Below, one piece after another: positions 6,248 through 59,507 of a DNA stretch of 64,000 bases (the stretch's first letter is position 1; every line of letters begins with the position of its first letter). Origin of the DNA: Leucoraja ocellata (Eukaryota). The stretch is taken from contig JAWMAR010000070.1 of assembly GCA_036785375.1 (NCBI GenBank), positions 7,006,001 to 7,070,000 on the forward strand, given 5' to 3'. The position numbers and the translations under genes are program-made. The notes under the pieces are model-generated. The model did not search any database, was not told the DNA's origin, and was given only the letters and a program-made list of their open reading frames with translations.

Positions 6248-6429
6248 TATCCTAACATATTCAGTTTTTCAGAGCCCCGCGCGATGTCGGGACCAGCTCC
6301 ACACAACTCCATACGGCTCCGGCGATCAAAGTGGGACCGGCCCCGCGAGGCCGTACGGCTCAAGTGACCACGTTAGGTCGCGCTTGCCGCATGGAGTCGC
6401 ATGCTCATGGGACAGGCCCTTTAATCCGG

Positions 6430-6542
6430 CGATGTTGCCCGTAGTGAGCAAAAGTTGCACAAAGTTCACACCCAACTCAATGCTGGCGTACAAAGAATCA
6501 CTCACACCGGCTGTCTTCAGGGCAGGCAGAAGAAAGTTTATT
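6430..6542 (-). terminator. Conserved polyadenylation cassette of the Ig family (copy 1)
   Basis: AATAAA on - at 6542-6537 followed by GT-rich gtgtgagtgattctttgt. The homologous cassette recurs downstream of copies 2, 3, 4 and 6 (AATAAA at 12698-12693, 22067-22062, 34854-34849, 61879-61874). Confidence 0.6.
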
Positions 6543-7307
6543 TAAATTAAACGTACATTTACCGGTGCAAGCAAGGTCAGTTCTCCTCACTGCATGCGAT
6601 CCACGCTCACACCTTCCACGCTGCTCATCTTTATACCTTTACTATTCCCTACTTAGTGTCAGAGTCAAACAATATGGAAACAGGCCCTTCCCCCAATACC
6701 ATGTGCTCTAATTTTGCCCATTAATCTCCTATGTGGGACCTTATCAAATACTTCCTGCAAGTCCAGGTACACTACATCCACTGGCTCTCCATTGTCCCCA
6801 GATCGTCTGACCACTAGTACATCAGGGAGATTGTTTGTGTTCTTCTTAGTGAAGACGGATCCAAAGTTTTTAGTCTATAAAGGTCCAATTTTAGTCTGAA
6901 CTAATTTTGCTAGTTATTTTTTAGTTATCTTCTGTTGCTCTTTAAAAGAGTTACCCAATCCCCTGGCTTTCCGCTCATCTTTGCAACGTTATACCTGTTC
7001 TCTTTTATTTTGATAGTGTCCCTGACTTCCCTTGTCAGCCACGGTCGCCCCTAACTCCCCATGGAATCTTCCTTCCTCTTTGGAATCCGGGTGCTCCGGT
7101 TTCGTCCCACACCCCAGAGACGTGCAGGTTTGTAGGTTAATTGGTCAGTGTAAATTGTATCTAGTGTGTGGGATAGAACTAGTATATGGGGTGATCACTG
7201 GTCCCCATTGACTCTGTGGGCCGAAGGGCTTGTTTCCCTGTTGTACCTCTGAACGGAACTAAACTAAACTAGACTTTGTTACTGACCCTGGGACTGGCCC
7301 TGCTGAA

Positions 7308-7844
7308 TCAGTGAGAGATCATCAGCTGCATCAATAATTCACAAACCGGTCTATCACTATAATGGAGCCAAACACAGGAATACGTCCCTGTATCTTCCTC
7401 TTTTACACCTGTCAGGAGCAACGTGGCGTCCTGTTCCCAAAGGACGTTTCGTTCCACGAACTTCCAGTGAACATGAGATCCCGTATAACGCGCATGCACT
7501 CTACTATGGAAATTGGCAATTGCAACACCATCTTTTTTCCATGTAACCATGGGACTATTGTCAACGTTGGATACTTTACATGGCAACATAACAGAACCAC
7601 CCAGAGATGCAACGAGCACCTTCTTGTTAATCGTTGATAGGTGATGACTGATGGCATCAGAATCTGACTTGTCCGTGCATCTTGGAAACCGTTCATCGGT
7701 GACTTGCCGAGGGGCCCGTGCGTTCCGCCCGGCCAAGTTTGCTTCCTCTCCCCATTCTCTGGAGATCGGACCTGTTCCAGTTGCGGAGACTTGCCACACC
7801 ATCTCCACAAGGACCATGAATCCTATCCATCTCTGCAGGCCCAT
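7308..7844 (-). CDS. Secreted single V-set Ig-domain protein, copy 1 (178 aa)
   Basis: ATG at 7844 lies 4 nt after an acceptor-like ttgtttcacccacag; the track's GTG start is intronic. Signal-like MGLQRWIGFMVLVEMVWQVSA, then RNARAPR/QV. V-set marks: GGSVMLPC, VTW 13 aa later, DATLLL, EEDTGTYSC (Cys-Cys spacing 68). Stop right after the G strand, no TM. Confidence 0.85.
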   Translation of the reverse strand: MGLQRWIGFMVLVEMVWQVSATGTGPISREWGEEANLAGRNARAPRQVTDERFPRCTDKSDSDAISHHLSTINKKVLVASLGGSVMLPCKVSNVDNSPMVTWKKDGVAIANFHSRVHARYTGSHVHWKFVERNVLWEQDATLLLTGVKEEDTGTYSCVWLHYSDRPVCELLMQLMISH

Positions 7845-8425
7845 GTTCCTGTGGGTGAAACAATGGGTCACCTTATTGCAACTCAGTAGGATTCATGATG
7901 GCATTCCCTGAACCCGCCCAGAGTTGGGGAATCGAGAACCAGAGGACATCGGTTTAAGGCGAGGGGGGGGGGAGAGATTTAATGTGAAACTGAGGGGTGA
8001 CTTTTTTACATAAAGGGTGGAGGGTGTTTGGAACGAGCTGCCGGAAGAGGTAGTTGGGGCAGGTACTATCACAATGATTAAGAAACAGTTAGACAGGTAC
8101 ATTGATAGGACAGGATTAGAGGGGTAAGGGCCAAACGCAGGCAGGTGGGTCTAGTATTGATGGGGACACGTTGGTGGGCGCGGGCAAGTTGGGCCAAAGG
8201 TCTCGCTGTGACTCTATGACTCCATCACTTGTCCCACCCTGGTCATTCCTCCTTCTCCCTGGTCCTGTCTAGCAGAAGGTACAGAAGCTTGAAAGCGCGC
8301 ACCACCAGACTCAGGAACAGCTTCTTCCCCTCTGCTATCAGGCTTCTGAACTGGGGGAACAGTGAACAGAGACAATCCCACCCCCATCACTCACAGACAC
8401 TTGAAGGATCCACAGGGTTGGTTAC

Positions 8426-8730
8426 CAGCTCCGGAGTCTCCACACAGGGTGACGGGGTCGGTCTTGTTCTCATCTCCTGCCATCGCTCGCTCCTTTTATA
8501 CCGACTCCCGGCTTCTCCTGCCCCTCATTGTCTGCCCTCACGTACATTCAACCAATCACTGCCTCCCACGGAGCATTGGCCGGAGTCAGCCGCGACCTCT
8601 CCACCCTCTGCCAAACGTGTCGTTGCATCAGCCGTTAACGTTTAACAAGAACAACGTCATCCCAGCTGCCAGCGGCCAACCAGGCGCCCCACACATCCTG
8701 CTTGTGTCTCCACCACGTCTCGTTCTGGTC
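8426..8730 (-). promoter_or_regulatory. Promoter and non-coding exon 1 of Ig copy 1
   Basis: TATAAAA on - at 8500-8494; CCAAT motifs at 8552-8556 (+) and 8579-8575 (-); donor CTG/GTAACC after 8426; matching acceptor at 7850-7849. The block is near-identical upstream of all six copies. Confidence 0.65.
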
Positions 8731-9105
8731 AACCCATCGCAGTTGAGGCAGAAACTATCCCAACGTTTAAGAAACAGCTATACAGGAACAGGTATAGGTC
8801 AGATTTGGAGGGAAATGGACCAAACGTGGACAGGTGGGACTAGTGTAGCTGGGACATGTTGTCCAATGTGGGCAAGTTGGGCCGAAGGGCCTGTTTCCAT
8901 GCTGTATCACTCTATAACTGTATTACACTATGACATTAAATCTTCTGCTTATCGAATCCACACACAAGATTAGTTGTTCAGCCAGAGCTGATCACACTTC
9001 TCGGCATCTGCATAAAATGGTGTCTGTCTTGTCGCGTCTTGTGCTGCTTGTTCGTGGTGGTGGAGAGATTGGTGTAAACGTGAAACATTAAATAAATAAT
9101 GATAA

Positions 9106-13515: not shown

Positions 13516-14052
13516 TCAGTAGATTTCAAAGACTGCCAGCGAGACGCATTCTTCACAAGTCCTATTATCTTGAGTGGTCCAGACACAGGTATATAACCCT
13601 TCATCTTTCTGTTCTACGCCTGCCAGGATCAACGAGGCGTCATGTATCACATGGATATCATTATGCTTGAAACGCCAGCGGCCCTCCGATCGCTTCGCTA
13701 TGTCAGGAGTTTTAAGACCATACCTGGCAATCGTAACATTGTATTTTCTCCAAATGACATTCAAGAGTTGATGGTATTCGCGGGATACTTTACAGGGCAG
13801 CGTAATGATACTACCCAGAGCTGCATCGAGCATATGCTCGCTAAATGATGCACCGTGATCACTGTCAGAATCTGACTCGTCCGTGCATCTTGGAAACCGT
13901 TCATTGGTGACTTGTCGAGGGGCCCGTGCGTTCCGCCCGGCCAAGTTTGCTTCCTCTCCCCATTCTCTGGAGATCGGACCTGTTCCAGTTGCGGAGACTT
14001 GCCACACCATCTCCACAAGGACCATGAATCCTATCCATCTCTGCAGTCCCAT
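13516..14052 (-). CDS. Secreted single V-set Ig-domain protein, copy 2 (178 aa)
   Basis: First 48 aa identical to copy 1. GSIITLPC...VIW...DASLILAGV..KDEGLYTC. Carries a fifth Cys (TCEEC). Confidence 0.85.
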   Translation of the reverse strand: MGLQRWIGFMVLVEMVWQVSATGTGPISREWGEEANLAGRNARAPRQVTNERFPRCTDESDSDSDHGASFSEHMLDAALGSIITLPCKVSREYHQLLNVIWRKYNVTIARYGLKTPDIAKRSEGRWRFKHNDIHVIHDASLILAGVEQKDEGLYTCVWTTQDNRTCEECVSLAVFEIY

Positions 14053-14634
14053 GTTCCTGTGGGTGAAACAATGGGTCACCTTATTGCAACTCAGTAGGAT
14101 TCATGATGGCATTCCCTGAACCCGCACAGAGTTGGGGAATCGAGAACCAGAGGACATCGGTTTAAGGCGAGGGGGGGGGGGAAAGATTTCATGGGAAACT
14201 GAGGGGTGACTTTTTTACACAAAGGGTGGAGGGTGTTTGGAACGAGCTGCCGGAAGAGGTAGTTGGGGCAGGTACTATCACAATGATTAAGAAACAGTTA
14301 GACAGGTACATTGATAGGACAGGATTAGAGGGGTAAGGGCCAAACGCAGGCAGGTGGGTCTAGTATTGATGGGGGCACGTTGGTGGGCGCGGGCAAGTTG
14401 GGCCGAAGGTCTCGCTGTGACTCTATGACTCCATCACTTGTCCCACCCCGGTCATTCCTCCTTCTCCCTGGTCCTGTCTAGCAGAAGGTACAGAAGCTTG
14501 AAAGCGCGCACCACCAGACTCAGGAACAGCTTCTTCCCCTCTGCTATCAGGCTTCTGAACTGGGGGAACAGTGAACAGAGACAATCCCACCCCCATCACT
14601 CACAGACACTTGAAGGATCCACAGGATTGGTTAC

Positions 14635-14940
14635 CAGCTCCGGAGTCTCCACACAGGGTGACGGGGTCGGTCTTGTTCTCATCTCCTGCCATCGCTCGCT
14701 CCTTTTATACCGACTCCCGGCTTCTCCTGCCCCTCATTGTCTGCCCTCACGTACATTCAACCAATCACTGCCTCCCACGGAGCATTGGCCGGAGTCAGCC
14801 GCGACCTCTCCACCCTCTGCCAAACGTGTCGTTGCATCAGCCGTTAACGTTTAACAAGAACAACGTCATCCCAGCTGCCAGCAGCCAACCAGGCGCACCA
14901 CACATCCTGCTTGTGTCTCCACCACGTCTCGTTCTGGTCA
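14635..14940 (-). promoter_or_regulatory. Promoter/exon 1 of Ig copy 2
   Basis: Same conserved block; TATAAAA on - at 14709-14703. Confidence 0.6.
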
Positions 14941-22910: not shown

Positions 22911-23447
22911 TCAGTGAGAGATCATCAGCTGCATCAATAATTCACAAAACGGTCTATATGGATACTTGATCCAAACACAGGAATACGTCCCTTTATCTTC
23001 CTCTTTTACACCTGTCAGGAGCAACGTGGCGTCCTGATTCCTAATGACGTCTCGTTGCACGAACCTCCAGTGAACATCAGATCCGTAATAAAACGCTAAC
23101 GCTCTCTCATGGAAATGGGCAATTTGAACACCATCTTTATTCCATGTAACCGTGGGACTATTGTCAACGTTGGATACATTACATGGCAACGTAACAGAAC
23201 CACCCAGAGATGCAACGAGCACCTTCTTGTTAATCGTTGATAGGTGATGACTGATGGCATCAGAATCTGACTTGTCCGTGCATCTTGGAAGCGTTTCATT
23301 GGTGACCTGTCGAGGGGCCCGTGCGTTCCGCCCGGCCAAGTTTGCTTCCTCTCCCCATTCTCTGGAGGTCGGACCTGTTCCAGTTGCGGAGACTTGCCAC
23401 ACCATCTCCACAAGGACCATGAATCCTATCCATCTCTGCAGTCCCAT
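22911..23447 (-). CDS. Secreted single V-set Ig-domain protein, copy 3 (178 aa), closest to copy 1
   Basis: Collinear with copy 1 without indels, 28 aa differences. GGSVTLPC...VTW...DATLLL..EEDKGTYSC. Confidence 0.85.
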   Translation of the reverse strand: MGLQRWIGFMVLVEMVWQVSATGTGPTSREWGEEANLAGRNARAPRQVTNETLPRCTDKSDSDAISHHLSTINKKVLVASLGGSVTLPCNVSNVDNSPTVTWNKDGVQIAHFHERALAFYYGSDVHWRFVQRDVIRNQDATLLLTGVKEEDKGTYSCVWIKYPYRPFCELLMQLMISH

Positions 23448-24028
23448 GTTCCTGTGGGTGAAACAATGGGTCACCTTATTGCAACTCAGTAGGATTCATG
23501 ATGACATTTCCTGAACCCGCCCAGAGTTGGGGAATCGAGAACCAGAGGACATCGGTTTAAGGCGAGGGGGGGGGGAAAGATTTAATGGAAAACTGAGGGG
23601 TGACTTTTTTACACAAAGGGTGGAGGGTGTTTGGAACGAGCTGCCGGAAGAGGTAGTTGAGGCAGGTACTATCACAATGATTAAGAAACAGTTAGACAGG
23701 TACATTGATAGGACAGGATTAGAGGGGTAAGGGCCAAACGCAGGCAGGTGGGTCTAGTATTGATGGGGACACGTTGGTGGGCGCGGGCAAGTTGGGCCGA
23801 AGGTCTCGCTGTGACTCTATGACTCCATCACTTGTCCCACCCCGGTCATTCCTCCTTCTCCCTGGTCCTGTCTAGCAGAAGGTACAGAAGCTTGAAAGCG
23901 CGCACCACCAGACTCAGGAACAGCTTCTTCCCCTCTGCTATCAGGCTTCTGAACTGGGGGAACAGTGAACAGAGACAATCCCACCCCCATCACTCACAGA
24001 CACTTGAAGGATCCACAGGGTTGGTTAC

Positions 24029-24335
24029 CAGCTCCGGAGTCTCCACACAGGGTGACGGGGTCGGTCTTGTTCTCATCTCCTGCCATCGCTCGCTCCTTTT
24101 ATACCGACTCCCGGCTTCTCCTGCCCCTCATTGTCTGCCCTCACGTACATTCAACCAATCACTGCCTCCCACGGAGCATTGGCCGGAGTCAGCCGCGACC
24201 TCTCCACCCTCTGCCAAACGTGTCGTTGCATCAGCCGTTAACGTTTAACAAGAACAACGTCATCCCAGCTGCCAGCGGCCAACCAGGCGCCCCACACATC
24301 CTGCTTGTGTCTCCACCACGTCTCGTTCTGGTCAA
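24029..24335 (-). promoter_or_regulatory. Promoter/exon 1 of Ig copy 3
   Basis: Same block; TATAAAA on - at 24103-24097. Confidence 0.6.
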
Positions 24336-29113: not shown

Positions 29114-29259
29114 ATTCAACCAATCACTGCCTCCCACGGAGCATTGGCCGGAGTCAGCCGCGACCTCTCCACCCTCTGCCAAACGTGTCGTTGCATCAGC
29201 CGTTAACGTTTAACAAGAACAACGTCATCCCAGCTGCCAGCAGCCAACCAGGCGCCCCA
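28750..29259 (-). pseudogene. Relic of a seventh Ig unit: CDS, exon 1 and TATA deleted, only the distal promoter left
   Basis: 29114-29259 matches the promoter block from 8546 onward, and 28700-28749 matches the 3' flank up to 6304. The 2241 bp between are replaced by a 364-bp Rex1-type RT fragment. Confidence 0.75.
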
Positions 29260-38439: not shown

Positions 38440-38555
38440 GAATATGAATAAGCTGCCCAAGTGAAATTTGAGTGCTATCCCTCCAATTTGCACTTGGCCT
38501 CACTCTGACAGTGGAGGCGGCCCAGGACAGAAAGGTCAGTGTAGGAATGGGGGGA
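38440..38555 (-). mobile_element. Old Penelope GIY-YIG C-terminal remnant
   Basis: On - reads TDLSVLGRLHCQSEAKCKLE, homologous to SDLSVLGLLHGHSEQHRKLEE of the intact Penelope copies. Confidence 0.6.
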
Positions 38556-39108
38556 GTCCGTGGTGAATCATTGGGAGGTTTCTCTCTATTTTCAGCCATG
38601 TCAATACATGACATTTCCCATGATGAGAAGTGGACCAAATGCAGGTATATGTCCCGGCATCTTTCTCTTGTACCCCCCACAGGACCAACGAGGCGTCCCG
38701 ATTTGTGAATAAATCGTTATTCACGAACTTCCAGTTGGGATACGATCCCTTATATCCCACTGAAAACCAACTGTGATATGTTGCAATGGCAACACCGTCT
38801 TTTTTCCATGTGACGAGGGTAGGTTTACTGTAATTCTTGGATAGTTTACAGGGCAGCGTAATAGAACCACTCGGAGACACAACGGCAACCTGCAGACTAA
38901 TGATTAAAGGGTGATCACCAGCAGAGTCTGGCTTGTCCGTGCATCTGGGAAGCTGTTCATTGTTGACTTGCCAATACGCCCGTGCGTTCCGCCCGGCCAA
39001 GTTTGGTTCCTCTCCCCATTCTCTGGAGATCGGACCTGTTCCAGTTGCGGAGACTTGCCACACCATCTCCACAAGGACCATGAATCCTATCCATCTCTGC
39101 AGTCCCAT
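38536..39108 (-). CDS. Secreted single V-set Ig-domain protein, copy 4 (190 aa, extended C-terminus)
   Basis: Same leader (RNARAYWQV variant). GSITLPC...VTW...DASLVLWGV..KDAGTYTC. The tail and stop run into a Penelope-like remnant. Confidence 0.8.
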   Translation of the reverse strand: MGLQRWIGFMVLVEMVWQVSATGTGPISREWGEEPNLAGRNARAYWQVNNEQLPRCTDKPDSAGDHPLIISLQVAVVSPSGSITLPCKLSKNYSKPTLVTWKKDGVAIATYHSWFSVGYKGSYPNWKFVNNDLFTNRDASLVLWGVQEKDAGTYTCIWSTSHHGKCHVLTWLKIERNLPMIHHGLPPFLH

Positions 39109-39689
39109 GTTCCTGTGGGTGAAACAATGGGTCACCTTATTGCAACTCAGTAGGATTCATGATGACATTCCCTGAACCCGCCCAGAGTTGGGGAATCGAG
39201 AACCAGAGGACATCGGTTTAAGGCGAGGGGGGGGGGAAAGATTTAATGGAAAACTGAGGGGTGACTTTTTTACACAAAGGGTGGAGGGTGTTTGGAACGA
39301 GCTGCCAGAAGAGGTAGTTGAAGCAGGTACTATCACAATGATTAAGAAACAGTTAGACAGGTACATTGATAGGACAGGATTAGAGGGGTAAGGGCCAAAC
39401 GCAGGCAGGTGGGTCTAGTATTGATGGGGACACGTTGGTGGGCGCGGGCAAGTTGGGCCGAAGGTCTCGCTGTGACTTTATGACTCCATCACTTGTCCCA
39501 CCCCGGTCATTCCTCCTTCTCCCTGGTCCTGTCTAGCAGAAGGTACAGAAGCTTGAAAGCGCGCACCACCAGACTCAGGAACAGCTTCTTCCCCTCTGCT
39601 ATCAGGCTTCTGAACTGGGGGAACAGTGAACAGAGACAATCCCACCCCCATCACTCACAGACACTTGAAGGATCCACAGGGTTGGTTAC

Positions 39690-39992
39690 CAGCTCCGGAG
39701 TCTCCACACAGGGTGACGGGGTCGGTCTTGTTCTCATCTCCTGCCATCGCTCGCTCCTTTTATACCGACTCCCGGCTTCTCCTGCCCCTCATTGTCTGCC
39801 CTCACGTACATTCAACCAATCACTGCCTCCCACGGAGCATTGGCCGGAGTCAGCCGCGACCTCTCCACCCTCTGCCAAACGTGTCGTTGCATCAGCCGTT
39901 AACGTTTAACAAGAACAACGTCATCCCAGCTGCCAGCGGCCAACCAGGCGCCCCACACATCCTGCTTGTGTCTCCACCACGTCTCGTTCTGG
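39690..39992 (-). promoter_or_regulatory. Promoter/exon 1 of Ig copy 4, divergent from the chitinase promoter
   Basis: Same block; TATAAAA on - at 39764-39758. Confidence 0.6.
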
Positions 39993-40369
39993 CCACCTAC
40001 CCGCTCCACTGTAATTGAGAAGACGATGTAACATAGAACATGGAATAGTGCAGCACAGGTACAGGCCCTTCGGCCCACAATGTCCGTGTTGAACATGATG
40101 TTGACCATGATGCCAAGAAGTTAAACTAATCTCTTCAGCCTGCATGTAATCCACTAGTGGGGGAGTCTCGGACAAGAGGTCACAGCCTCAGAATTAAAGG
40201 GTGGTCGTTTAAGAAGGAGATGAAGAGGAATTTCTTTAGTAAGAATGTGGTGAATCTGTGGAATTCATTCCCACGGAAGGCTGTCTGTGGAGGCCAAGTC
40301 GACGGATATTTTTAATGCAGAGATGGATAGATTGTTGATTTGTACAGGTGTCAGAGCTTATGGGGAGAA

Positions 40370-41409: not shown

Positions 41410-44400
41410 GTAAGAGCCTTTTGTTGTTTAATTCCTTTTGATATTGGAATGCTTTTTGAAAGAATCAGGTTTAGACATTAAATGATGAGAACAGGTTAAA
41501 TTGTTTCTCAAGTTTTATTATAAAGGTGTCTGAAGGGTCTCGACTCTATCTAACCTTAATCTCCGGAGATGCTGCCTGACCCGCTGTGATACTCCAGCAC
41601 GTTGTGAAATATCACCTATCCATGTTCTCCATAGATGCTGCCTGACCCGCTGAGTTACTCCAGCACTCTGTGAAACGTCACCTATCCATGTTCTCCACAG
41701 ATGCTGCCTGACCCGCTGAGTTACTCCAGCACTCTGTGAAACGTCACCTATCCATGTTCTCCACAGATGCTGCCTGACCCACTGAGTTATGGTGCAGCAG
41801 CATCTATGGAGCTAAGGAAATAGGCAACGTTTTGGGCAGAAACCCTTCTGGAAATAGGCAACGTTTCGGGCCGAAACCCGGAAGGGTTTCGGCCCGAAAT
41901 GTTGCCTATTTCCTTAGCTCCATAAATGCTGCCTGACCCGCTGAGTTACTCCAGCACTCTGTGAAACGTCACCTATCCATGTTCTCCACAGATGCTGCCT
42001 GACCCGCTGTGATACTCCAGCGCTTTGTTTCTATCTTTGGTGTAAATCAACTTCTGCAGTTCGTAGTTTCTTAATATTTTGTATTTTCCAACGGACCCGA
42101 AACGTCACCCATTCCTTCTCTCCGGAGAAGTTGCCTGACCTGCTGAATTACTCCAGCTCTCTGTGAAAATCTTCAGAGACATTTAGAAAATCACGAGGGG
42201 CAGAGATATGAAGGATGGTCTCTGCCTTTCCCCAGGGAAGGGGAGTCTAAAACTACAGGGCATTGACACTGAATGTGAGAGGGCAAAGATTTAAAGGTGA
42301 ATCCAGGGGCAACTGGGACAAGCTTAGATGGGGCATTTGATCAGCATGGACAAATTGGGCCAAAGGGCCTGTTTCTGCGTTGTGTGACTATGACTATGAC
42401 TCTAACCTGTTGCCCAGAGGGTGGTGAGTATATGGAACGATCTGCCAGAGGAGGCAGATGAGGCAAGTATAATAACATTTAAAAGATATTTGGATGAGTA
42501 CATGGATAGGAAAGGTTTAGTTTAGAGATACAGTATGGAAACAAGGCCCTTCGGCCCATCGAGTTCACGCCGACCATTGTTCAGCCTTTCACACTATTTC
42601 CATGTTATCCCACTTATCCAACGACTCCCTACACACGAGGAGCAATTTTACAGAGGGACAATTAACCTTCAACCCCTCACATCTTTGGGATTTGGGAGGA
42701 AACCAGAGCTCCTGGAGAAAACCCACTTGGTCACAGGGGGAGGGAGTTAAGAGTGTTATTCTCATATGTACCAGAAACAGAACAATCAAATTTATACTAG
42801 AATAGCAAGCATAACAGGGTTGATGTACAAATTCCACACACGTTCAACACCCATAGTCAAGATCAAACCTGGGTCTCTGGCGCTGTGAGGCAGCAACTCT
42901 ACCACTGCTCCACCGTGCCGCCCACAAGATAGATCTTCATAGTTTCCCAACCACTTACATAACAGTGTCATTGTGTAGAGGCCGTAATACAGCCAAGGTT
43001 TCATAATTTCATACGTGCTAGGAGCAGAATTAGGCCATTCGGCCCATCAAGTGCACTCTAGCCACACAATCATGGCTGATCTACCTTTCCCTCTCAACCC
43101 CATTCTCCTGTCTTCTCCCCGTAACACCTGATTTATTACGGTTTGACATAATCCTAACACGCTGTTCTCTGTTTTCTGTTCCAGCGGTGGTCTTACTGGC
43201 CTGCCTGCAACTGGGTGAGTCTTTGTGCATTTGCAGCCTTGCTTTGCTTTGCTTTGTGTGAGTGCCACAGAGACATTGTCCTGACCACCCTGTCTCTCCC
43301 TTGCCCAGGCTCTGCCTACAGGCTGGTGTGTTACTTCACCAACTGGGCACAGTACAGACCAGGAGAGGGTAAATACATGCCCCAGAGCGTGGACCCTTGC
43401 CTCTGCACGCACATCATCTACGCCTTCGCTGGAATGAAGAGCAATCAGATCGCCACCTACGAATGGAACGACCCAAAACTCTACCAGGAGATCAACAGCC
43501 TGAAGAACAAGTACAGTTGCTGAATAAGTACTAACGCCTCTGTCCCACTTTCCCGAGTTACTCACGAATTCTCCCGAGTTTTCCCCGTTTATTCAAACTC
43601 AGACAATGTCCGTAGCGAGTCCGTAGAGCCGTAGGTACTCGGGGCATCAGGTAAGTCGGGACGTTTTTTCAGCATGTTGAAAGATGTCCACGAGTAAACA
43701 AAAATATCCCCGAATACCATCGGCTGGCATCTCCGAGTTTGAATCAAGGGGAAAACTCGGGAGAATTCGGGAGTAACTCGGGAAAGTGGGACGGGCTTAA
43801 CCTTGTTTCTCAAATGCCGGGCAATGTTGCGATGTTTACATTGTCCAGTTTAGTTCATTGTCACCTGTACTGATACAGTGAAACGTTTTTGTTGCTTGCT
43901 AACCAGTCACTGTATTGGATATTCCCCAAATCCATATTCCATAACCCATATTCCACAGTTAATTTAGTTTAGTTTATTATTGTCACGTGTACCATGGTAC
44001 AACAAAAAGCTTTTTGTTGCGTGCTAACTAGTCGGCGGAAATACTGTACATGGTTACAATCAGGCCTTCCACACTGTACAGACACAGGGTCAAGGGTATA
44101 ATGTTTAGTGCAAGATAAAGTCCAATGACGTCTGATTAAATATAGTCCGAGGGTCTCCAATGAGGTAGATGGGAGGCCAGGGCTGCTCTCTAGTTGGTGA
44201 GAGGACGGTTCAGTGGGATAAGCCCACCGTATGGGTTAGGTGATGCCTAACTTCTCAGAGACAGCTTGGTGGAGACAAATTGCCCTGCTGATTTGGGTCT
44301 GATTGGGTTAAATTTAACCATGAATATTCCCTGGTGCTTGCTGCAAGCGAAGGGACATCCAGTGTTTAATGAACAGTCCATTTCAAACTCTTCGAAATGG

Positions 44401-47400
44401 TCGATCTAAGTGAACAAGTCGTTTGGAAGCTTATGTGGCAAGAATCCACCTGTTGTATGTACCGGGTGGCACAGTGTCGCAGCGGGTAGAGCCACTGCCT
44501 CACCGCGCCAGAGACCTGGGTTCGTTCCTGACCTCGGGCACTGTTTGTGTGGAGTTTGCACGTTCGCCATAAGACAGTGAGGGTTTTCTCTGGATTACCG
44601 GTTTTCTCCCACATTCCAAAGGGTTTCCAGGTTAATTGGCCTCTACAATTTGCCCCAAGTGCATAGGGAGTGGATGAGAAAGTGGGATGAAATAGCACTG
44701 GTGTGAACGGGTGATCGATGGTCAGCGGGGTCTTTGACATGACCCTGTTACACATCCATTTGTTGAAGGTTTTCTCATCTCATCCACCTCCCCTGTCTGA
44801 AAGGTGACTTGGTTTAGGGGGATATTCAGGAGAAAGCTATTGGACAGGCCAACAGAATCATTGTCATAGATTGAGGAAATAGGCCCTTCAGCCCAGAGTG
44901 AGACTGGCCCATTGCTTATGAAGCCTTCTTGCATAAACTTGCACCTAATTTTCTGTGACGCCCTTGAGATCCAGACTAAGGTAAATCCCCTCAACTAAAC
45001 GTAACACCAAAGGGGCGAAAAAAAACAGAAGATCCAGAAGTTCCTGAGCAGTTCTGAAAATGTTTTGTTGTTCTAAACATCATTCTAAAACCACATTTTG
45101 TCTATTTTTTTAAGGAATTCAAACCTCAAGACTCTGCTGTCCATTGGAGGCTGGAACTTTGGCACCCAGAAGTAAGATGGAAACTTTTACATTAGCATTA
45201 GATTAAAAAAAGTTATTTTCCAATTGACTGTGATATGGAATTAATATTGAAAGACACAAAGTGCTGGAGTAACTCCTCAGTAACTCAGCCTGAAGAAGGG
45301 GCTTGACCCGAATCGTCACCTATCCAAGTTCTCTAGAGATGCTGCCTGACCCTCTGATTTACTCCAGCACTTTGTGTCTTTTCTTTTTGTAAACCAGCAC
45401 CTGCAGTTCGATGTGCCCGACGTAAACAGTGGGTGTGTTTGGTAATTTTGCCATAAATGCCATTTGTGCCGTTTCATGCCTTTTTTGATAATTTTACCAA
45501 GATGCCTTTTTCACGATCGAGCCTTTTTTTGCTGTTTTGCTAAAAGGTCATGCTATTTTGTCTAGTTGTACCATGATTACAATGACATTTTCTATATTAA
45601 CAAGTTAATACTAATGTTATTATTAAAGTGTTAAAATAGTATAAATTACAAGAAGATTTTCACCACCGGGATGAAACTGGGGGCGCCACTGTCATTCGTG
45701 CCGCTGCCTGCTGGTTCAGTCTTCCCCAACATCTATTCATTGCTTCCAATTTTGCAAACTTCCCACAAGCTACCACTTCCCTTGAGAAAGGTGGTGAAAC
45801 GTTAGTGAATAACTTGCAGGTTTTCCACAAAGTAACTGACGATATTCGTAAATGTGGCGATGTAGGTAAAGACATACAAGGAAATTATGAGAGAGTGATT
45901 TTACCTAACAAAGATCATGAAGAAATACAAAACATAGCTAAAGTTCTCAAAGGTAATTGTAATGCACAAGGTATCGACGTGAATATAGAGTCTGTAGCTT
46001 GTTTCTGGTATGCACCAGTGACCTCAGCTGGGGTACAAATAAGTTTTTCACAACTGAAGAATATTCTGTCTGACAGACGGCATAGTTTAACACCAGATAA
46101 TTTGAAAAAATGCTAGTAATTATGTGCAACCAGGCAACTTTGGTCATTTAATGTACTATAACCTTATATTATCATTTTTAACCATATTTTGGTGGTGGAA
46201 ATACATGCCTTTTTATGTCAATAAATGCCTTTTACGTGCCTTCTTTGTAGTTTTATTATGCCTTTTTGCCTGCCTATTTCAGTTTTTTAGTGGCTAAACA
46301 TCCTGTAATGATATACACAGAGATAAATATCGAGGGGATAAGTTTGCAGTGAACTGTTTCAGGAGTATTATTAAACAGAGCAGTTTGCAAATTGTAATTT
46401 GAACAATATAGGATATTGCTTGCCAAAAAGTAAAATAACATAATTTTACGAAAGAATCCTTTCAATAGTGTGTGGCACAGCGGTAGAGTTGCTGCCTTAT
46501 TGCGCTTACAGCACAAGAGACCCAGGTTCGATCCTGACTACGGGTGCTGTCTGTACGGAGTTTGTACGTTCTCCCTGTGACCTCCTGGGTTTTCTCAGAG
46601 ATATTCAGTTTGCTCCCACACTCCAAAGACGTACAAATTTGTAGGTTAATTGGATGTTATAAATGTAAATTGTCCCTTGTGTGTGTAGGATAGTGTTAGT
46701 GAGCGGAGATCGCTGGTCGGTGCAGAGTGGGGGGGGCCGAAGGGCATGTTTCCACGCCGTATCTCTGAACTAAACGTCATTTTCAGAAATAATAATTTCA
46801 CATGAAACTTCGGAGAATAGCAGGAGAAAGGAGTAATTTTTTAACCACGAACATTTAATGAAGGCGAGGGTGAATCTGTACATGATAGGATATAACAGCA
46901 GATTCACTGGGTCACTGAGTACAGCGGCCGTTACTACAGTTCCTTGTGTCTCCGGCACATTTAATTTCTAACTCCTCTCCCCACATCCATCCCTCCTGCA
47001 GATTCACCGCGATGGTCGCCTCATCAGGAACTCGGCAAATCTTCATCAAGTCAGTCATCGCCTTCCTGAGAGGGTACGGCTTTGACGGTCTGGACATCGA
47101 CTGGGAATATCCTGGATCTCGAGGAAGTCCTCCCGTTGACAAGCATCTCTACACTGTCCTGGCTCAGGTGCGGTCAAGTACATCTCACTATGAGTTTCTT
47201 TAAAATAAATGGGCCAAACTCAGGCCAAACCTATCCTTTATCTCCACAGATGCTGCCTGACCCGCTGAGTTCTCCAGCACTCTGTGAAACGTCACCTATC
47301 CATGTTCTCCACAGATGCTGCCTGACCCGCTGAGTTACTCCAGCACTTTGTGGGACTAGTGTAGATGGGACATATTGGTCGGTGTGGGCAGGTTGGGCCA

Positions 47401-50400
47401 AAAAGTCTGTTTCCACGCTGCATAACTCTATGACTTGAAAATGTATCCAATAAATGTAACCTTATTGTCAAGATCACCAAGGACAGATTTTCACAAAAGA
47501 TTTTAAGAATTCAGAAATTAAGAATTTAATAAAGTTTGAACCAAGCACCATTTTGAGTGGGGATTAAAAGGTTTCTTCCCCACTCTTGGTTGACACGGTG
47601 GTGCAGCGGTAGAGTTGCTGCCCCACAGCACCAGAGACGCGGGATCGATCCTGACCATGGATGCTGTCTGTACGGAGTTTATACGTTCTCCCTGTGACCT
47701 CAGGTGCTATTGATTCCTCCCACACTCCAAATATGTGTGGGTTTGTAGGTTAATTGGCTTCAGTAAATTGTCCCAAGTATGTAGGATATAACTACAGTGA
47801 AAGGGTAATCGCTGATCGGCATGGACTCGATGGACTCGATGGGCCTGTTTCCAAGCTGCATCTCTAAACCAAACTGAACTAAAATCGAAATTGACACAAA
47901 GTGTTGGAGTAACTCAGCGGGTCAGGCAGCATCTCTGAGGAAAGAGGATAGGCGATGCTTTGGGTCGGGACCCTTTCTAAGACGAGACTTGACCTCTTGC
48001 TAAAGGAGCCCTCGATCTCTCTGACCCACAGGAGCTGATGGCTGCCTTCGAGGCCGAAGGGAAAAGCGCAGGAAAGCCACGACTGCTGCTCTCGGCTGCC
48101 GTTGCTGGTGGGATGAGCAACATCGATACTGGCTACGAGGTTCCTCAGCTCAGCCAGTGAGTGTCCTTCCACATGCAAAGAAACCCAACTTTTCCTGTGG
48201 GCGTTTAGCGAGTTTGACGTCGTATTTGAACTAGTTTTTCATGGCTCCACAATTTCAATGGTGGGAGCTTCCAGCATGGTGATTGAGATCCATCCACAAC
48301 CCTAATGCATTCAATGCCTTCATCAGTCGGGGCATTGAGTGTGAGATTCAGGAAGCCAACTTGCAGCTCTGTAGGTCTTTAGCCAGGAGGCATTTAGAGC
48401 ATTGCGTGCAGGTCTGGTCGTCTCCATTACAGGAAGCATGTGGAGGCTTTAGAGACGGTTCAGAGGAGAGTTACCAGAGCGCTGCTTGGATTAGAGGGGA
48501 TTAGCTACAGGGAGAGGTTCGACAAATTTACAATGTTTCCTCTGGAACGTCAGAGGTTGAGGAGAGACTTGATAGAAATTTATAAAATCACTAGAGGCAT
48601 AGATAGTGTAGACAGTCAGAACCTGCTGGGGTGGTGGTTGAAACAGATACGTTAATGGCATTTAAAAGACCTTTAGATAGGCACATGATCATGCCAGGCA
48701 TGGAGGGATGTTGGTGATATGCAGGTAGATAAGTGATGGACTTGGCATCATGTTCAAGTTTAAAGGAGATATGCATGTTTTTTTTTTACAGAGATAGTGG
48801 TGGGTGCCTGGAACGCGCTGCCAGGGGTGGTGGTGGAGGCAGATACGATAGTGGTGTTTAAGAGGCTTGTAGATATACAAGGAATGGAGGGATATGGATC
48901 ACGTGTAGACAGAGGAGATGAGTTTATCTTGCCGCCATGTTTGGCACGGACATTGTGGGCAGAAGGGCCTGTTCCTGTGTTGTACTGTTCTGCATTCTGA
49001 TGTTAATTTGGTGCATGGAGTATCAGGGTGACCCGTCTCCTCTCTTGCAGGGTAGTTGACTTCTTCAACGTGATGACCTACGATTTCTATGGTCCCTGGA
49101 GCCACGTTACTGGAGAGAACAGCCCCCTCTATGCCCTGCCTAATGACAAGGATTACACCAACACCCACTTCAATGTGGTAAGTGCTCAAGAAAAATAAAT
49201 CCTGCTCAACTTTTTCAACTCCTCTCTCCGAATTAATAAACCCGTTTTGTCAAGTCCATATAACTGGTCCATACACCATGGGGAGCAGACTGTGGAGTTG
49301 CATCACAACTAGGTTTGGGAACAGCTCTGAGCCCAAGACCACAAGAAATTGCAGAGAGTTGTGGATGGAGCCCAGTCCATCACACAGACCACACTCCCCA
49401 CCATTAACTCCATCTACACTTCACGCTTCCTCAGAAAAGCAGCCAACAGAACAAAGACTTGTCCCACCCCAGTCATTTCTCCTTCACCCTGGTCCTGTCT
49501 AGCAAAGGTACAGAAGCTTGGAAGCACGCACCACACCACCAGACTCAGGAACAGCTCCTTCCGCTCTGCTATCAGGCTTCTGAATGGTCCTTCCATAGGC
49601 TAGGGTACTGTCCGATTCACCTCTACCCCATTGCGGACATTGGACTTTGTCTCTGGAACTGATGCACTACGATGCTGAGAACTATATTCTTCACTCTGTA
49701 TCTTCCCCTTTGTTCTACCTATTGTACCCGAGATTGATTTTACTTCGGAGTCACGTGAGTGATTCCGTGAAGAACCCGTTCAGCACGCATGCGCGGCATT
49801 ACGTCCAGCAGAGCAACAGCGGCAGGCGGGAATCGGGCTCTCCCGCTATGGAGGTGAAAGAACGGACCGTCAGGTAAGCTGACGTCGGTTTCCTTCGCAG
49901 GGAGCCTTCTGCTGTCCGGCAGAGAAGAAAGGCTCTGCAACAAACCTGTCCCCCGCTCGACTCCACGGAGGAGCCTTCCTTCAGGGGGGGCAGCTGGAAG
50001 TAACGCAACGGAGGCGTCCAGCCGGTGGCTCCGACTTATCGGACGGGGACGTCTCTCCACCCAGGCGGGGGAGAGACAGCCGCCTGAGTCGCATGGAGCG
50101 GCTCTTGGAGCAGGAGCTTGGGGGTAATAACAAACCGTCGACACCATGTCAGCATCCCTCTGAACATCCACTAAAAAACAGCACTTGTCCAGCATCAAAA
50201 AATGGGAGAAGTACTGCTTGGATACAGGGACCACCTACTCAACCGCTATAGTGACCAACGTACTGGAATTCCTGGCGAACCTTCACCACGATGAAGGACT
50301 TCAGCTACAGAGCCATCAACACAGCTAGAATTGCCCTGCCTGTCTATTTAAAACCAGCTCCAGGACAACAGGCCATGGGGTCCCACCAGCTGGTGGTCAA

Positions 50401-53400
50401 ACTAATGAAGGGTATTTACAACTCTAACCCCTAGACCAAGGTACACCCATATATGGGATGTCAGTGTGGTCCTGACATACCTCAGGGGATGCCCACCAGC
50501 CAGACCCCTCAACCTGAAACCATCTATGCTCAAAACACTCAGGTTGATGGCACTTGTAGCTGCACAGAGGGTCCTGTCACTACACCTATTGCGATTGGAC
50601 ACCATGCTCACAGCTCCAGACCAGGTCTCTGTCGTTATCCAGGGAATGATCAAACAGAGCAGACCAGGAACACCTAATCCAGTCGTGGAATTCCGGGCTT
50701 ACCCGCCAGAAACACCGTTATGTGCCATGACCCTATTATCCTACATAGACACAACCAAAAATTCGAGGGAGATGAAAAGCCTTGTGGGTCAGTCATAAAA
50801 AACCTTATGGTCGGGTGACGAGCCATTTCGAGATGGCTCAAGCAGGTGCTAAAAGCTGCTGGGATAAAAACTAACATGTACAAAGTTCATTCCATCAGGG
50901 CAGCATCCACGTCAACGGCTAAAAGAATGGACATGCCTATAAACCACATCCTGGCTACAGCAGGATGGTGGGGGGTAAGACCGTTCAGAAATTTTATAAT
51001 AAGCCGTTGGCAAAACCTGTTTTATTTGCAGGAAAGATTTTACAGACTGCAAATATTTAATTTTAGCCCAGGGGAACAATTTAATTTCTTTGTTGTTATT
51101 GTTAAAAAAAAAAAAAAATGCCATTGTGTTTTTCTACAAACAGATTCATTGGTTGATTACGATAACACACTTCCTCCCTCAAAGACTTCGGCAGTGATGT
51201 AGTAATAACTGTTACACGGTTTGAAATCACAAAGCTTTGAAATCTTCATGGAATCACTCACGTGACTCCGAAGTAAAATTGTAAGATTAAACGAGAACTT
51301 ACCAGTTTGAAGTTTGATCTGTATTTTATGAGGAGTTACTATGAGGGATTACGTGCCCTCCGCTCCCACCCTCAATAATATGGGTCAAATTCATAAACTG
51401 ATGTCTCCTTATCTTTACTATGTTTACTTCAATAACTGTGTCTATCTGTGATTCCACACCGCTGCTTTGAAGTATGCCGCGCATGCGTGCTGAACGGGTT
51501 CTTCACGTAATCCCTCATCGTAACGCCTCATAAAATACAGATCAAACTTCAAACTGGTAAGTTCTCGTTTAATCTTACTATTTGATTGTATTCATGTACG
51601 GTATTATCTGATCTGTTTGGAGGCTTTTCACTGTGCCTCGGTACACGTGATAATAATAAACCTAAACGTAAACATGAGCCTTTGATGCCAACTGTGTCCC
51701 TGCAGGAATACGCCATGAACTACTGGAAGAGCAAGGGGGCTCCAGTGGAGAAGTTGAATGTGGGTTTCCCCACCTACGGACACACATTCAAACTGACCTC
51801 GTCCAGCACGGCTGTGGGTGCCCCAGCAGGAGGCCCTGGTCCAGCCGGCAAATTCACCCACCAAGCCGGCTTCCTGGCCTACTATGAGGTACTGTACCTA
51901 CCGACCAATCCAACCGCGTGGCTCTTTACTCAATGTTATCTTCCAATCCAATACTGAATAACCACACACAACATAGATGGACACAAGGTGCTGCAGCCTG
52001 AGGATGGATCTCCACCCGAAACATCGCACACCCATGTTCTCCGTTCCCCTCCTCAAGAGATCCCCATTTCCTTTCTATCCTCCCCTTCCTCTTTGCCCTC
52101 CCCACTATCTCCTTCTCACCACATCCCTCCCTCCGGCTTTATATCTCTCTCCTCCACTTTCTGGACATATCGCTCTTTCCTCTCTTTATATATCTTTCTC
52201 TCCTCTTTCTTTTTTTCTCTTTCATGTATTTCTCCTCAACATCTCTCTCTACTCTTTCTTCCTCTCTCCACATCTCTCTTCCCCTCTCCTCTCAGTATCT
52301 GACACTATTTCGTCTCCTGTTCCCCTCCAGCCTTTGTCACTATCGCCACCCACCACCCTTGGAGTCAAATGGTTACCCCTCAGATTTAATAGACAATAAG
52401 TGCAGGAGTAGGCCATTCGGCCCTTCAAGCCAGCACCATTCCTATTAAATCTTTCTCCCTCACCCATGTCCTCTGGTTCTCGATTCGCCGTCTCTGCGTT
52501 TGCGTTTACCTGATCGGTTCCTCTCATGATTTTTTTCCAACTCGACAAGATTGGTCCCTAACATCTCCGTCTCTGGGCAGATCTGCGGGTTCCTGAACGG
52601 TGCCACCAGCGAATGGAACGCCCCACAAGACACCCCGTACGCCTTCAAGAATGGAATATGGGTCGGCTATGACAACGTCAAGAGCTTCGGAGACAAGGTA
52701 CATCTGACCATTGAAGTTCCACCCTTCCTGCGTGAGCCACCGTAGTCTCGTTTATCTCAATATCTACTGCAGAGTTTCCAACAGTGAACTCCAGAATTAT
52801 GCTTCAAAATCCTTAGAATCTTTTGTCGTTAACATTCTGCATAAAATTTCCAGCTCACCATAAATTCATGGTGTTCGCGTGTCATGGGTTATGGGGAGAA
52901 GGGAGGAGAATGGGGTTAGGATTCACATCGGGGAAACTTGGAGTTTCTGTTTTTATTTCCCAAACCGTGCTGTGATGAATCCCGATAGAAAGCTTTCTAC
53001 AGCGCATTGTAGAAGCCATTATTGACTGAGGGATGTTGGTGTAAAGATGTGAACTGTGTCTTCCAGGTTGAGTGGCTGAAGAAGAACAACTTTGGAGGAG
53101 CTATGGTCTGGGATCTGGCTCTGGATGACTTCTCTGGTGCCTTCTGTCACCAGGGACCCTACCCCCTCATCAACACTCTGCACTCTGGCCTTGGCATCTC
53201 TGGAGGTAATGGAGATGTGCGGGACAAGTCTTTCACACAGAGGGTGATGGGTGCCTGGAACACGCTACCAGGGGGTGGTGGTGGAGGCAGATAGTGGTAG
53301 GACTAGGTATGTAGCTACGTTTTCCACACAGAGGGTGGTGGGTATAGAGAACAAGCAACTGTTACTCCAGCACATTGTGTCTCTTTTTATAGACCAGCAT

Positions 53401-53897
53401 CTAGGGTAGATGGGAGGTCGGGACCCCGCTGGAGTTGGTGAGAGGGAGGTTCAGTGGCATAATCCCATTGACTGGGATATTCACACAGTTCCTTGTTATT
53501 ATGGGGAGAAGGCAGGAGAATGGGGTTGAGAGGGAGGGAACCATGATTGAATAGTGGAGTAAACCCAATGGGTTAAATCGCCTAATTCTCCTATGAATTT
53601 AGGAGAACTTATAACAAACTGTGTTTCTTTGCAGCTTGCGTCCCATCCAAGACAACATTGGCGCCGGCGGTCCCACCTACTGATGCCCCTAGTGGTGGTG
53701 GAGGCGGTGGCAGCAGCGGTGGTGGCAGCAGCGGTGGTGGAGGCAGTGGCTTCTGTAAGGGCAAAGCCAACGGTACCTTCGCTGATCCCAAGAACAACAA
53801 CAAGTTCTACCAGTGCGTCAATGGTCGGACCTACCTGAAGAGCTGTGCCACTGGATTAGTCTTTGATTCATCCTGTAAATGTTGCAACTGGGCTTAA
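41385..53897 (+). CDS. chia: Acidic mammalian chitinase-like GH18 chitinase with CBM14, 477 aa; join(41385-41409,43185-43214,43309-43510,45115-45171,47002-47167,48032-48156,49051-49177,51706-51888,52581-52697,53067-53205,53635-53897)
   Basis: All introns GT-AG and in phase, total 1434 nt. Signal [49 protein letters not shown], catalytic [24 protein letters not shown], Gly/Ser linker, Cys-rich CBM14 ending CKCCNWA. chia versus chit1 orthology needs a phylogeny. Confidence 0.93.
41568..42022 (+). repeat. 66-bp tandem repeat related to the Penelope 3' end, with a central palindrome; short array also at 47249-47350
   Basis: Unit gatgctgcctgacccgctgagttactccagcactctgtgaaacgtcacctatccatgttctccaca at 41568, 41634, 41700, 41766, 41925, 41991. 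Confidence 0.85.
43185..43214 (+). CDS. chia: Chitinase coding exon 2
   Basis: ttctgttccag/...[11 protein letters not shown]/gtgagt, 30 nt. Confidence 0.85.
43309..43510 (+). CDS. chia: Chitinase coding exon 3
   Basis: [17 protein letters not shown]...[13 protein letters not shown]...LKNK. Confidence 0.92.
43535..43797. mobile_element. PIF/Harbinger-type MITE
   Basis: About 70-bp TIRs (gtcccactttcccgagttactc...), TAA on both sides. Confidence 0.75.
45115..45171 (+). CDS. chia: Chitinase coding exon 4
   Basis: [23 protein letters not shown] bounded; too short for the ORF track. Confidence 0.9.
45427..46305 (+). mobile_element. hAT-like DNA transposon remnant
   Basis: [31 protein letters not shown] resembles the hAT C-terminal dimerisation motif (PxTSxxVERSFS); CAG...CTG imperfect ends; no clear TSD. 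Confidence 0.6.
47002..47167 (+). CDS. chia: Chitinase coding exon 5 (catalytic DxxDxDxE)
   Basis: [17 protein letters not shown]. Confidence 0.95.
48032..48156 (+). CDS. chia: Chitinase coding exon 6
   Basis: [42 protein letters not shown]. Confidence 0.9.
49051..49177 (+). CDS. chia: Chitinase coding exon 7
   Basis: [27 protein letters not shown]...FNV/gtaagt. Confidence 0.9.
49738..51583 (+). mobile_element. Internally deleted DIRS1-like tyrosine-recombinase retrotransposon in chitinase intron 7
   Basis: YR motifs AAQRV.SL and HSIRAAS...AGW (frameshifted); inverted termini (about 49768-49800 vs 51474-51506); internal complementary region 51243-51355 matching both extremities; TTT ends. 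Confidence 0.85.
51706..51888 (+). CDS. chia: Chitinase coding exon 8
   Basis: [28 protein letters not shown]...GFLAYYE. Confidence 0.92.
52581..52697 (+). CDS. chia: Chitinase coding exon 9
   Basis: [39 protein letters not shown]. Confidence 0.92.
53067..53205 (+). CDS. chia: Chitinase coding exon 10
   Basis: [38 protein letters not shown]. Confidence 0.92.
53635..53897 (+). CDS. chia: Chitinase coding exon 11 (Gly/Ser linker and CBM14)
   Basis: GGGGSS repeats, then FCKGKANG...[30 protein letters not shown]-stop. Confidence 0.92.
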
Positions 53898-58991: not shown

Positions 58992-59507
58992 TCACTGCAC
59001 TGCCAGCTTGGTGTTTAGTTTACACGGCACGTTATTAACCAGCCAAGCGCAGGAATATTTCCCAGCATCTTCCTCTTCCAGCCCCGTCAGGACCAACGAG
59101 GCGTCCCGTGTCTCAACCACGTTTGTTTTCATGAACTTCCTGCGTCCGGGTGACCCTGGATATTGCGCACCGTTCCTGTCAGTAAACACGGCGATCGTAT
59201 CTTTTCCTTTTGTCCACAGCACCACAAATTTATCGGCTGCACCGTCTTCTTTGGGCATTTTGCAGGATAGTTGAGCAGAACCACCCTTACTGGCCGTCAC
59301 CTCTGTCCATCTCATCTTATCCGGAGCGAGGTTAACAGCGCATTGTGGAGTTGGATTTTCGGTGACTTGTCGAGGAGCCCGTGCGTTCCGCCCGGCCAAG
59401 TTTGCTTCCTCTCCCCATTCTCTGGAGATCGGACCTGTTCCAGTTGCGGAGACTTGCCACACCATCTCCACAAGGACCATGAATCCTATCCATTTCTGCA
59501 GTCCCAT
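58992..59507 (-). CDS. Secreted single V-set Ig-domain protein, copy 5 (171 aa)
   Basis: Same leader (1 aa change). GGSAQLSC...VLW...DASLVLTGL..EDAGKYSC..TKLAVQ-stop. AATAAA on - at 58925-58920. Confidence 0.85.
   Translation of the reverse strand: MGLQKWIGFMVLVEMVWQVSATGTGPISREWGEEANLAGRNARAPRQVTENPTPQCAVNLAPDKMRWTEVTASKGGSAQLSCKMPKEDGAADKFVVLWTKGKDTIAVFTDRNGAQYPGSPGRRKFMKTNVVETRDASLVLTGLEEEDAGKYSCAWLVNNVPCKLNTKLAVQ

Follow-up and report, generated by a model that had tools for sequence, protein, structure and literature searches.

In the duplicated human opsin genes, red and green, interlocus gene conversion leaves a peak of divergence: the non-coding sequence is homogenized, the selected coding sequence remains divergent, and in the converted parts paralogues are closer to each other than orthologues, the peak showing the reverse (PMC3924837). 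A homogenized signal 'export exon' was described for the precursors of frog skin antimicrobial peptides, in which an invariant signal region precedes a hypervariable mature product and for which gene conversion was suggested by the authors (PMC13128954). The rodent Esp pheromone genes form a secreted multigene family with a constrained signal peptide and a fast-evolving secreted part, and conversion affects their proximal coding region and intron (PMC3477143). The VCBPs of amphioxus and Ciona are secreted, non-rearranging V-type proteins (PMC4008424).

A comparable arrangement was found in a window of 64,000 nucleotides (the whole stretch of DNA analyzed here, to which all coordinates refer) from the skate Leucoraja ocellata, in which six genes for single V domains flank a chitinase gene. 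The likeness to the opsins comprises both the distribution of homogenized and divergent parts and the reversed relation of paralogues and orthologues, whereas the skate cluster consists of six loci and not of a pair, its peak takes in an entire domain (protein identity of 40-60%), the putatively converted part extends over the promoter, the 5' exon, the intron and the leader, and the chitinase gene would be spanned by conversion. The frog orphan signal exons resemble a relic promoter in the skate cluster. However, in the frog genes the signal region has an exon of its own and a short peptide is the product, while the skate leader and the folded V domain share an exon, so that the break lies inside this exon, and for the skate an incongruence at the DNA level is shown. 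Compared to the exon tracts of 20-30 bp in the Esp genes, the skate tracts cover about 1 kb at 98-99.5% identity including the promoter, and the folds are unrelated. Like the VCBPs, the skate proteins are V-type, non-rearranging and probably secreted, and their genes flank a chitinase with a chitin-binding domain. They comprise one V domain only and carry no chitin-binding domain themselves, the chitinase being encoded by its own gene on the opposite strand, and the likeness is one of resemblance and not of demonstrated homology. In the literature covered (mainly openly accessible articles without their supplements, and passages of the review PMC6795676), no description of the family or the cluster was found. 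We regard the observation as largely explained by a process already known, the peak of divergence that gene conversion leaves in opsins and other duplicates, of which the skate V-domain genes provide a new, clean example.

Organization of the gene cluster

Six intact open reading frames of 171-190 codons, all beginning with MGLQ(R/K)WIG, were found on the minus strand (c1 to c6, with the ATG at 7844, 14052, 23447, 39108, 59507 and 62788), and the Pfam V-set profile scored above its curated cut-off in all of them. The proteins follow one plan: a near-identical leader of 46 residues, a short Cys-bearing extension and a single V-set domain, after whose G strand the stop codon follows in the same exon. 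Leader and V domain are encoded in one exon. The closest relatives are the uncharacterised Leucoraja erinacea genes LOC129708937-946 and one gene of Rhinoraja longicauda.

In c1 (minus strand), the shared proximal promoter lies at 8470..8731 (CpG observed/expected of 0.96, GC content of 58%) and contains what we take to be a CCAAT box at 8579, a reverse CCAAT box at 8556 and a TATA box (TATAAAA) at 8500. Judged from the TATA spacing, transcription would start at about 8470. Exon 1 (8395..8469, donor GTGAGT at 8394) is probably 5'UTR. The NCBI models translate an extension of 31 amino acids from an in-frame ATG at 8483, 17 nt past the TATA box; since this ATG precedes the expected start and the extension in the Narcine model is unrelated, we prefer the reading as 5'UTR. 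A second ATG on the same strand, at 8473, is out of frame and close to the predicted start; if transcription begins above 8473, it would open a short upstream reading frame ending at the splice junction. The intron (7849..8394) comprises 546 bp, mostly LINE-derived. It is followed by the leader (7707..7844), with a putative signal peptide in codons 1-21 and a predicted propeptide ending with RNARAPR directly before QV, and by the mature part (7308..7706) with the Cys-bearing extension and the V-set domain, without a transmembrane segment. TATA box, donor (8394 in c1) and acceptor (7849 in c1) are verbatim the same in all six copies, the CCAAT box is also present, and the splice junction of exon 1 is the same in six of six L. 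erinacea models.

The other genes lie on the same strand. In c2 (13516..14940), an old V domain is placed between young flanks, and c3 (22911..24334) is a recent duplicate of c1. The leader of c4 (38536..39995), the orthologue of LOC129708937, ends with RNARAYW before QV. The orthologue of LOC129708945, c5 (58992..60354), carries an upstream block of the c1-4 type on a V domain of the c6 type, and c6 (62273..63722), closest to LOC129708942, shows two homogenized tracts around an ancestral mid-intron. The chitinase gene (GH18 with C-terminal CBM14) is located on the plus strand at 43158..53897, based on three exon-bearing frames that were checked, the gene ends being approximate, and separates c1-c4 on the left from c5-c6 on the right. 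It carries a Ser/Gly linker. In mammals, chitinases are also linked with single-V genes. One chitinase intron contains fragments of open reading frames (50409-51202) with an HSIRAAST motif, presumably from a tyrosine-recombinase retroelement; Pfam gave no match for them at an E-value of 0.01. Two N gaps (55062-56049 and 56490-56807) lie between the chitinase gene and c5, where more copies could hide. The L. erinacea V lineages P0004 and P0006 have no counterpart in the window.

Classification of the proteins

In the AlphaFold prediction, residues 70-177 form a V-type sandwich and the leader is disordered; a single-sequence fold of c5 reached a pLDDT of 47. All 14 proteins, that of Narcine among them, carry without exception an extra pair of cysteines, at residue 56 and at residues 162-168 approximately. 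This conservation and pLDDT values of 50 or more near residues 52-56 suggest a disulfide C56-C168, by which the N-terminal extension would be linked with the G strand. A fifth cysteine occurs in c2, and the net charge of the mature parts ranges from -5 to +12 across the proteins. An RxxR motif was found near the junction of leader and mature part in 13 of the 14 proteins, ending at R46 in 11 of them; in just two, c4 and the orthologous P0002, it ends at R43. The Narcine protein lacks RxxR and keeps PRQV. The N-terminal V extension specific to c1 and c3 (7606-7646 in c1) shares two exact 10-mers, permuted and inverted, with its own promoter (8620-8651), which may be a coincidence or the result of templated insertion.

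Antigen-receptor V genes (Ig, IgNAR, TCR) were rejected as a class, as recombination signal sequences with a 12- or 23-bp spacer gave no match at up to three mismatches, the J motif [FW]GxG was absent from the last 30 residues of all 14 proteins, and constant domains are lacking. The proteins are also not VCBPs, since in c1-c6 and the L. erinacea models a single V-set domain is followed by the stop codon without a fused chitin-binding domain. V domains of the CD300/TREM/pIgR/MDIR type have an extra Cys pair in the C-C' region; this class was rejected because cysteines occur here only at residue 56, in the B strand, in the F strand and at the start of G. The best Foldseek match was domain 1 of nectin-1 (E-value of 2e-9, 21% identity) with many near ties, and the matches, to domains of nectin, CD155, 2B4, CAR, TIM and CD2, are at the level of the fold. 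The PDB sequence search and the ESM Atlas returned generic Ig matches only. While the V-set fold is shared with nectins, and the Narcine homologue was automatically named nectin-1-like, members of the nectin/CD155 family have a V-C-C ectodomain and a transmembrane segment. The skate proteins comprise one domain, and the highest 19-residue hydropathy outside the N-terminus is 1.54. They differ from nectin, CD155, CD2 and TIM by the missing C domains, transmembrane segment and tail, and by the propeptide and the extra conserved Cys pair.

Identity of the upstream block and conflicting genealogies

The preliminary description had reported about 1 kb of near-identical sequence upstream of the V domains in copies 1-5. 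This was borne out: in the non-coding block (8696-7849 in c1), all ten pairs of c1-c5 showed 4-15 differences over 843-848 sites (0.47-1.78%). The sharing of leader and promoter with c6 in spite of a different mid-intron was likewise observed. Compared to the other copies, c6 differed at 0-2 of 227 sites in the promoter, 0-1 of 76 in exon 1, 1-3 of 167 in the 5' part of the intron and 0-1 of 64 in its 3' part, while its mid-intron is non-homologous to that of c1-c5. The longest identical runs of 256-476 bp were equalled in none of 2000 permutations for each of the 15 pairs, with the mid-intron columns removed, so that the run of 476 crosses the join by 6 sites. In the four pairs tested, the upstream block was less diverged than the synonymous V sites, with Fisher p values of 7e-21 to 3e-46. 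Identity peaks in promoter, exon 1 and the adjacent 152 bp of LINE-derived sequence, with 2 variable columns of 432 compared to 21 of 341 in the rest (p=3e-6). This peak fits tracts anchored at the CpG-rich promoter, together with purifying selection.

Since recent segmental duplication produced c1, c2, c3 and a relic copy (their distal flanks differ by 0.8-3.3%), the upstream identity among c1, c2 and c3 is trivial. The informative copies for conversion are c4, c5 and c6, whose flanks are mostly non-homologous, and the V domain of c2.

The intron provides an order of events. All six introns share a LINE 3' end (8227..8350 in c1, plus strand), which is 89% identical to an independent copy at 49457-49584. 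In c1-c5 the rest of this first LINE is replaced by the tail of another LINE (7913..8226, plus strand), which is absent from c6; the mid-intron of c6 (62857..63210, plus strand) is the continuation of the LINE of 8227..8350. We take the first element to be Rex1/L2-like and the replacing tail to be CR1-like; reverse transcriptase domains were confirmed in related open reading frames of the window. Since the LINE in c6 runs continuously across the switch point with the independent copy 49271-49584 (83.8% over 315 columns), the c6 intron is ancestral and the replacement in c1-c5 derived. Around this mid-intron, c6 is homogenized in two tracts (63722-63211 and 62856-62644). Thus c5 has the derived intron of c1-c4, yet its V domain is sister to that of c6 with the ancestral intron (UFBoot of 100 in the V tree, 62 for the c5+c6 clade in the protein tree). 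Separate trees for the upstream block and the V domain, a check proposed in the preliminary description, were incongruent. With the V data, the upstream tree was rejected at AU p=7e-5; with the upstream data, the rejection of the V tree was only weak (AU p=0.04, KH and SH p=0.10), which can be attributed to the few informative sites. A further conflict was observed for c3, which groups with c4/c5 at the intron sites 8058, 7986 and 7901, its V domain and flanks being sister to c1.

Comparison with other batoids

Homologue searches for proteins of near length yielded six family members in L. erinacea, one in Rhinoraja and one in Narcine. P0008 and P0009, weak generic teleost Ig matches, were dropped from the family. 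Among the 150 listed matches to the family profile, two were full-length in a single stretch (P0001 and P0081) and the other 148 were partial in several stretches. No shark homologue was among the matches found, at the limited sensitivity of the search.

In the six L. erinacea NCBI models, exon 1 and leader are again nearly identical and the V lineages attached to them are the same divergent ones, the chimera of the c5 type among them, and c5 itself is identical to LOC129708945 at 169 of 171 residues. The V domain of Rhinoraja P0003 nests among the skate V domains as sister to L. erinacea P0004 (UFBoot of 96), while at four sites (Q18, A21, S28 and E30) its leader departs from every one of the 12 other skate leaders. 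This leader test was done at the protein level with one Rhinoraja sequence without DNA; its pattern is the standard signature of concerted evolution as read from the sequences, with paralogues closer than orthologues. Two linked states of the leader, A38/R40 and P38/W40, are dispersed among the V clades in both species of Leucoraja. Since only 16-17 of 46 leader residues are kept in the Narcine homologue, protein constraint does not freeze the leader.

Altogether, old, paralogue-specific V domains stand against young upstream blocks that the copies share, the two parts have conflicting genealogies, and patches resembling conversion are also present 3' of the gene. The recurrent gene conversion proposed in the preliminary description is therefore supported by the position of the c5 intron against the V tree, by the reciprocal AU rejections (strong in one direction, weak in the other) and by the leader test across families. 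Our main reading is recurrent non-allelic gene conversion in an old tandem family of prepro-single-V genes, with selection blocking it in the mature V domain, to which we assign a probability of about 80%.

Limits of the homogenized sequence

Above the predicted start, only about 260 bp of DNA are common to the copies, so that the co-regulated expression implied in the preliminary description is no more than a possibility. At its 5' edge, the block fades over 10-15 bp of residual homology into copy-specific flanks, which are repeat-derived in c1/c3, c4 and c5; the block of c5 begins about 35 bp later, cut by a repeat. In five of six copies and the relic this edge falls within about 10 bp. Such a coincidence would be expected from the cassette-like exchange that the preliminary description had also considered. 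On such a model, transposition or site-specific recombination would carry the promoter-leader block (or the V exon of c2) as one piece between fixed ends, and selection would retain it for co-expression. The appearance of c5, as if a c1-4 block had been joined once to a V domain of the c6 type, and the old V domain of c2 inside a young segmental duplicate could be explained in this way too. However, neither terminal inverted nor direct repeats framing 7700-8731 were found, no site resembling a recombination signal sequence was present at up to three mismatches, copies of the promoter within the 64-kb window occur only with V genes and the relic, and c6 shows two separate tracts instead of one.

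The 3' edges point in the same direction, as they are spread over codons 35-65. A sharp boundary at the cleavage site had been described, and the drop is indeed steep, from about 98% to 54-69% identity. Its position, however, is scattered: change points were determined at codons 43-50 in 10 of 15 pairs, at 35 and 38 in two, at 63 and 65 for c2 compared to c1 and c3, and at 108 for c1-c3, and the cleavage site itself is predicted from a motif. The break is near the putative processing site, varying by copy and not fixed on it.

Homogenized sequence was also found on the other side of the V domain. A 3' block with an AATAAA at about 6540 (6421..6690, minus strand) is common to c1, c2, c3, c4 (34733-35004) and c6 (61771-61918). 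Within it, a patch of 94 bp just downstream of AATAAA is identical in c1, c2, c3 and c6 (6426-6519, 12582-12675, 21951-22044 and 61774-61867) and shows 4 differences in c4, compared to 18 differences between c1 and c6 in the adjoining 67 sites; a counterpart in c5 was not found. It may stem from conversion on the 3' side or be an element of the 3' end that is under constraint. The 3' flank of c2 differs by about 1% from c1/c3 past the first 150 bp approximately, and divergence shoulders occur on both sides of its V domain. Since sequence 3' of the V domain is homogenized too, the V domain appears as an island among convertible homologies and not as cargo behind a mobile cassette. The earlier view of homogenization upstream from which the V domain escapes consequently stood for the divergence of the V domain and not for the restriction to the upstream side, and the exchange of a cassette is considered improbable.

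The relic seventh copy (29114..29259, minus strand) is a promoter fragment of 146 bp with 99.3% identity, whose V exon and intron are gone and whose upstream flank is intact. It adjoins an insertion (29257-30428), which we take to be Penelope-like and for which Pfam gave no match, duplicating about 14 bp (8678-8691 in c1). A presumed Penelope-like element at 16901-19421, inserted in a CR1-like LINE, is 96% identical to the copy at 29257-30428 and has an inverted partial copy (16901-17446 and 18873-19422, 98%). Positions 1-980 of the window match 15891-16867 at 97.8%; the window therefore starts inside another repeat unit, and more copies are probably located to the left.

Divergence and selection in the V domain

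A slightly less probable alternative than the cassette is a recent duplication of all copies, with the V exon evolving fast by positive selection or local hypermutation and without conversion. This holds true for c1 and c3, whose flanks are recent and whose mature parts show 37 nonsynonymous changes in 309 sites and 4 synonymous changes in 87 (dN/dS of 2.8, p=0.03; for the V core 4.1, p=0.016). Positive selection acts on the V domain in these two copies. Of the mature changes between them, 21 of 27 lie in C-C'-C''-D and the FG loop (strands taken from AlphaFold), the usual binding face of V domains. The strong difference of the c1-type V domains from L. erinacea P0001 (97/132 and 105/132) would also agree with fast evolution.

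For the other copies, the synonymous sites tell against it. The dS of the mature region was 0.39-1.01 in 14 of 15 pairs (c1-c3 showed 0.047), and in the same 14 pairs 3 of 21 to 8 of 19 fourfold sites in conserved codons differed; Nei-Gojobori dS is noisy at this divergence, and the fourfold values are lower, still amounting to 14-42%. At synonymous and fourfold V sites, divergence exceeds that of the upstream block by a factor of 10-100. For the c2 V domain, the dS to c1/c3 is 0.39-0.47, inside flanks that differ by about 1-2%. The distant V domains of c5 and c6 across the chitinase gene, as first described, were confirmed, with a mature identity of 48 of 122 for c1-c5 and the GH18+CBM14 gene in between. 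Between species, the V domains of c4 (134 of 144) and c5 (124 of 125) are conserved to their L. erinacea orthologues, so that not all copies are fast-evolving, and the value for c5 indicates that the V region is not simply hypermutable. Furthermore, the V lineages are older than the Rhinoraja split, and the mostly non-homologous flanks of c4, c5 and c6 do not fit a recent duplication.

Selection on the upstream DNA and quality of the assembly

The near-zero variation in promoter and exon 1 and the CpG-rich promoter with its CCAAT and TATA boxes raise the question whether purifying selection on the DNA alone (promoter, RNA structure or intronic enhancer) holds the block among old paralogues. 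For the promoter, its invariance may result from purifying selection as well as from conversion. As an explanation of the whole block it is slightly less credible still than recent duplication, since the block holds LINE remnants, a part of about 330 bp is wholly replaced in c6, the leader changes between families, and selection cannot hand the derived c1-c4 intron to c5.

An artefact of assembly or polishing can practically be dismissed: although the N gaps are present, duplicates at 97-99% are hard to assemble and the junctions of c1, c2, c3 and the relic could be mis-joined, every copy carries private variants in the upstream block, polishing cannot merge sequences truly 55-70% identical, and the six L. 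erinacea models repeat the pattern, the independence of that assembly being assumed since its proteins differ.

Proposed mechanism

Under the main reading of gene conversion limited by selection, conversion would recur wherever the paralogues retain homology. Purifying selection would keep promoter/exon 1 and leader free of transposons and alike enough to serve as anchors of strand exchange. Tracts anchored at both could co-convert the intron in between, presumably in a non-reciprocal manner and even over a heterology of about 330 bp as in c5; on the single haplotype analyzed, conversion is not distinguishable from a double unequal crossover. Tracts extending past about Q47 would overwrite paralogue-specific binding residues and be purged, and after divergence of the V domains mismatches would also halt them. 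The edge would come to lie near the start of the mature protein, variable between copies. As a by-product, one core promoter and one leader for putative secretion and processing would be placed in front of diverse V domains, which probably bind variable foreign or partner ligands via the C-C'-C''-D/FG face. As for the identity peak, PRDM9 was described as partial or weakly complete in two chondrichthyans other than skates, the skates being unmentioned in that source (PMC5519329); recombination that is PRDM9-free and directed to promoters is a lead for its origin.

Implications

Among cases of conversion against selection, the cluster is unusually clean and comprises several loci; an intron rearrangement orders the events, and the break falls within one exon. 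It allows a direct test of whether conversion or selection keeps the signal and pro regions of hypervariable secreted families, a possibility that the frog study does no more than raise (PMC13128954). In practice, probes from promoter, intron or leader and short RNA-seq reads cannot separate c1-c6.

With regard to function, the genes could form a batoid germline repertoire of secreted single-V recognition proteins that are released together as a cocktail, a chitinase-linked analogue of the VCBPs; we consider this improbable. If true, conversion would keep one promoter and prepro module so that the variants leave the same cells together, the chitinase linkage would reflect a shared mucosal expression in gut or skin, c2 would show that whole V exons are swapped into young loci, and V proteins and chitinase would together be a functional analogue in jawed vertebrates of the protochordate VCBPs. 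Independent of this, the cluster brings to light a family in batoids whose single V domains are under positive selection and probably secreted.
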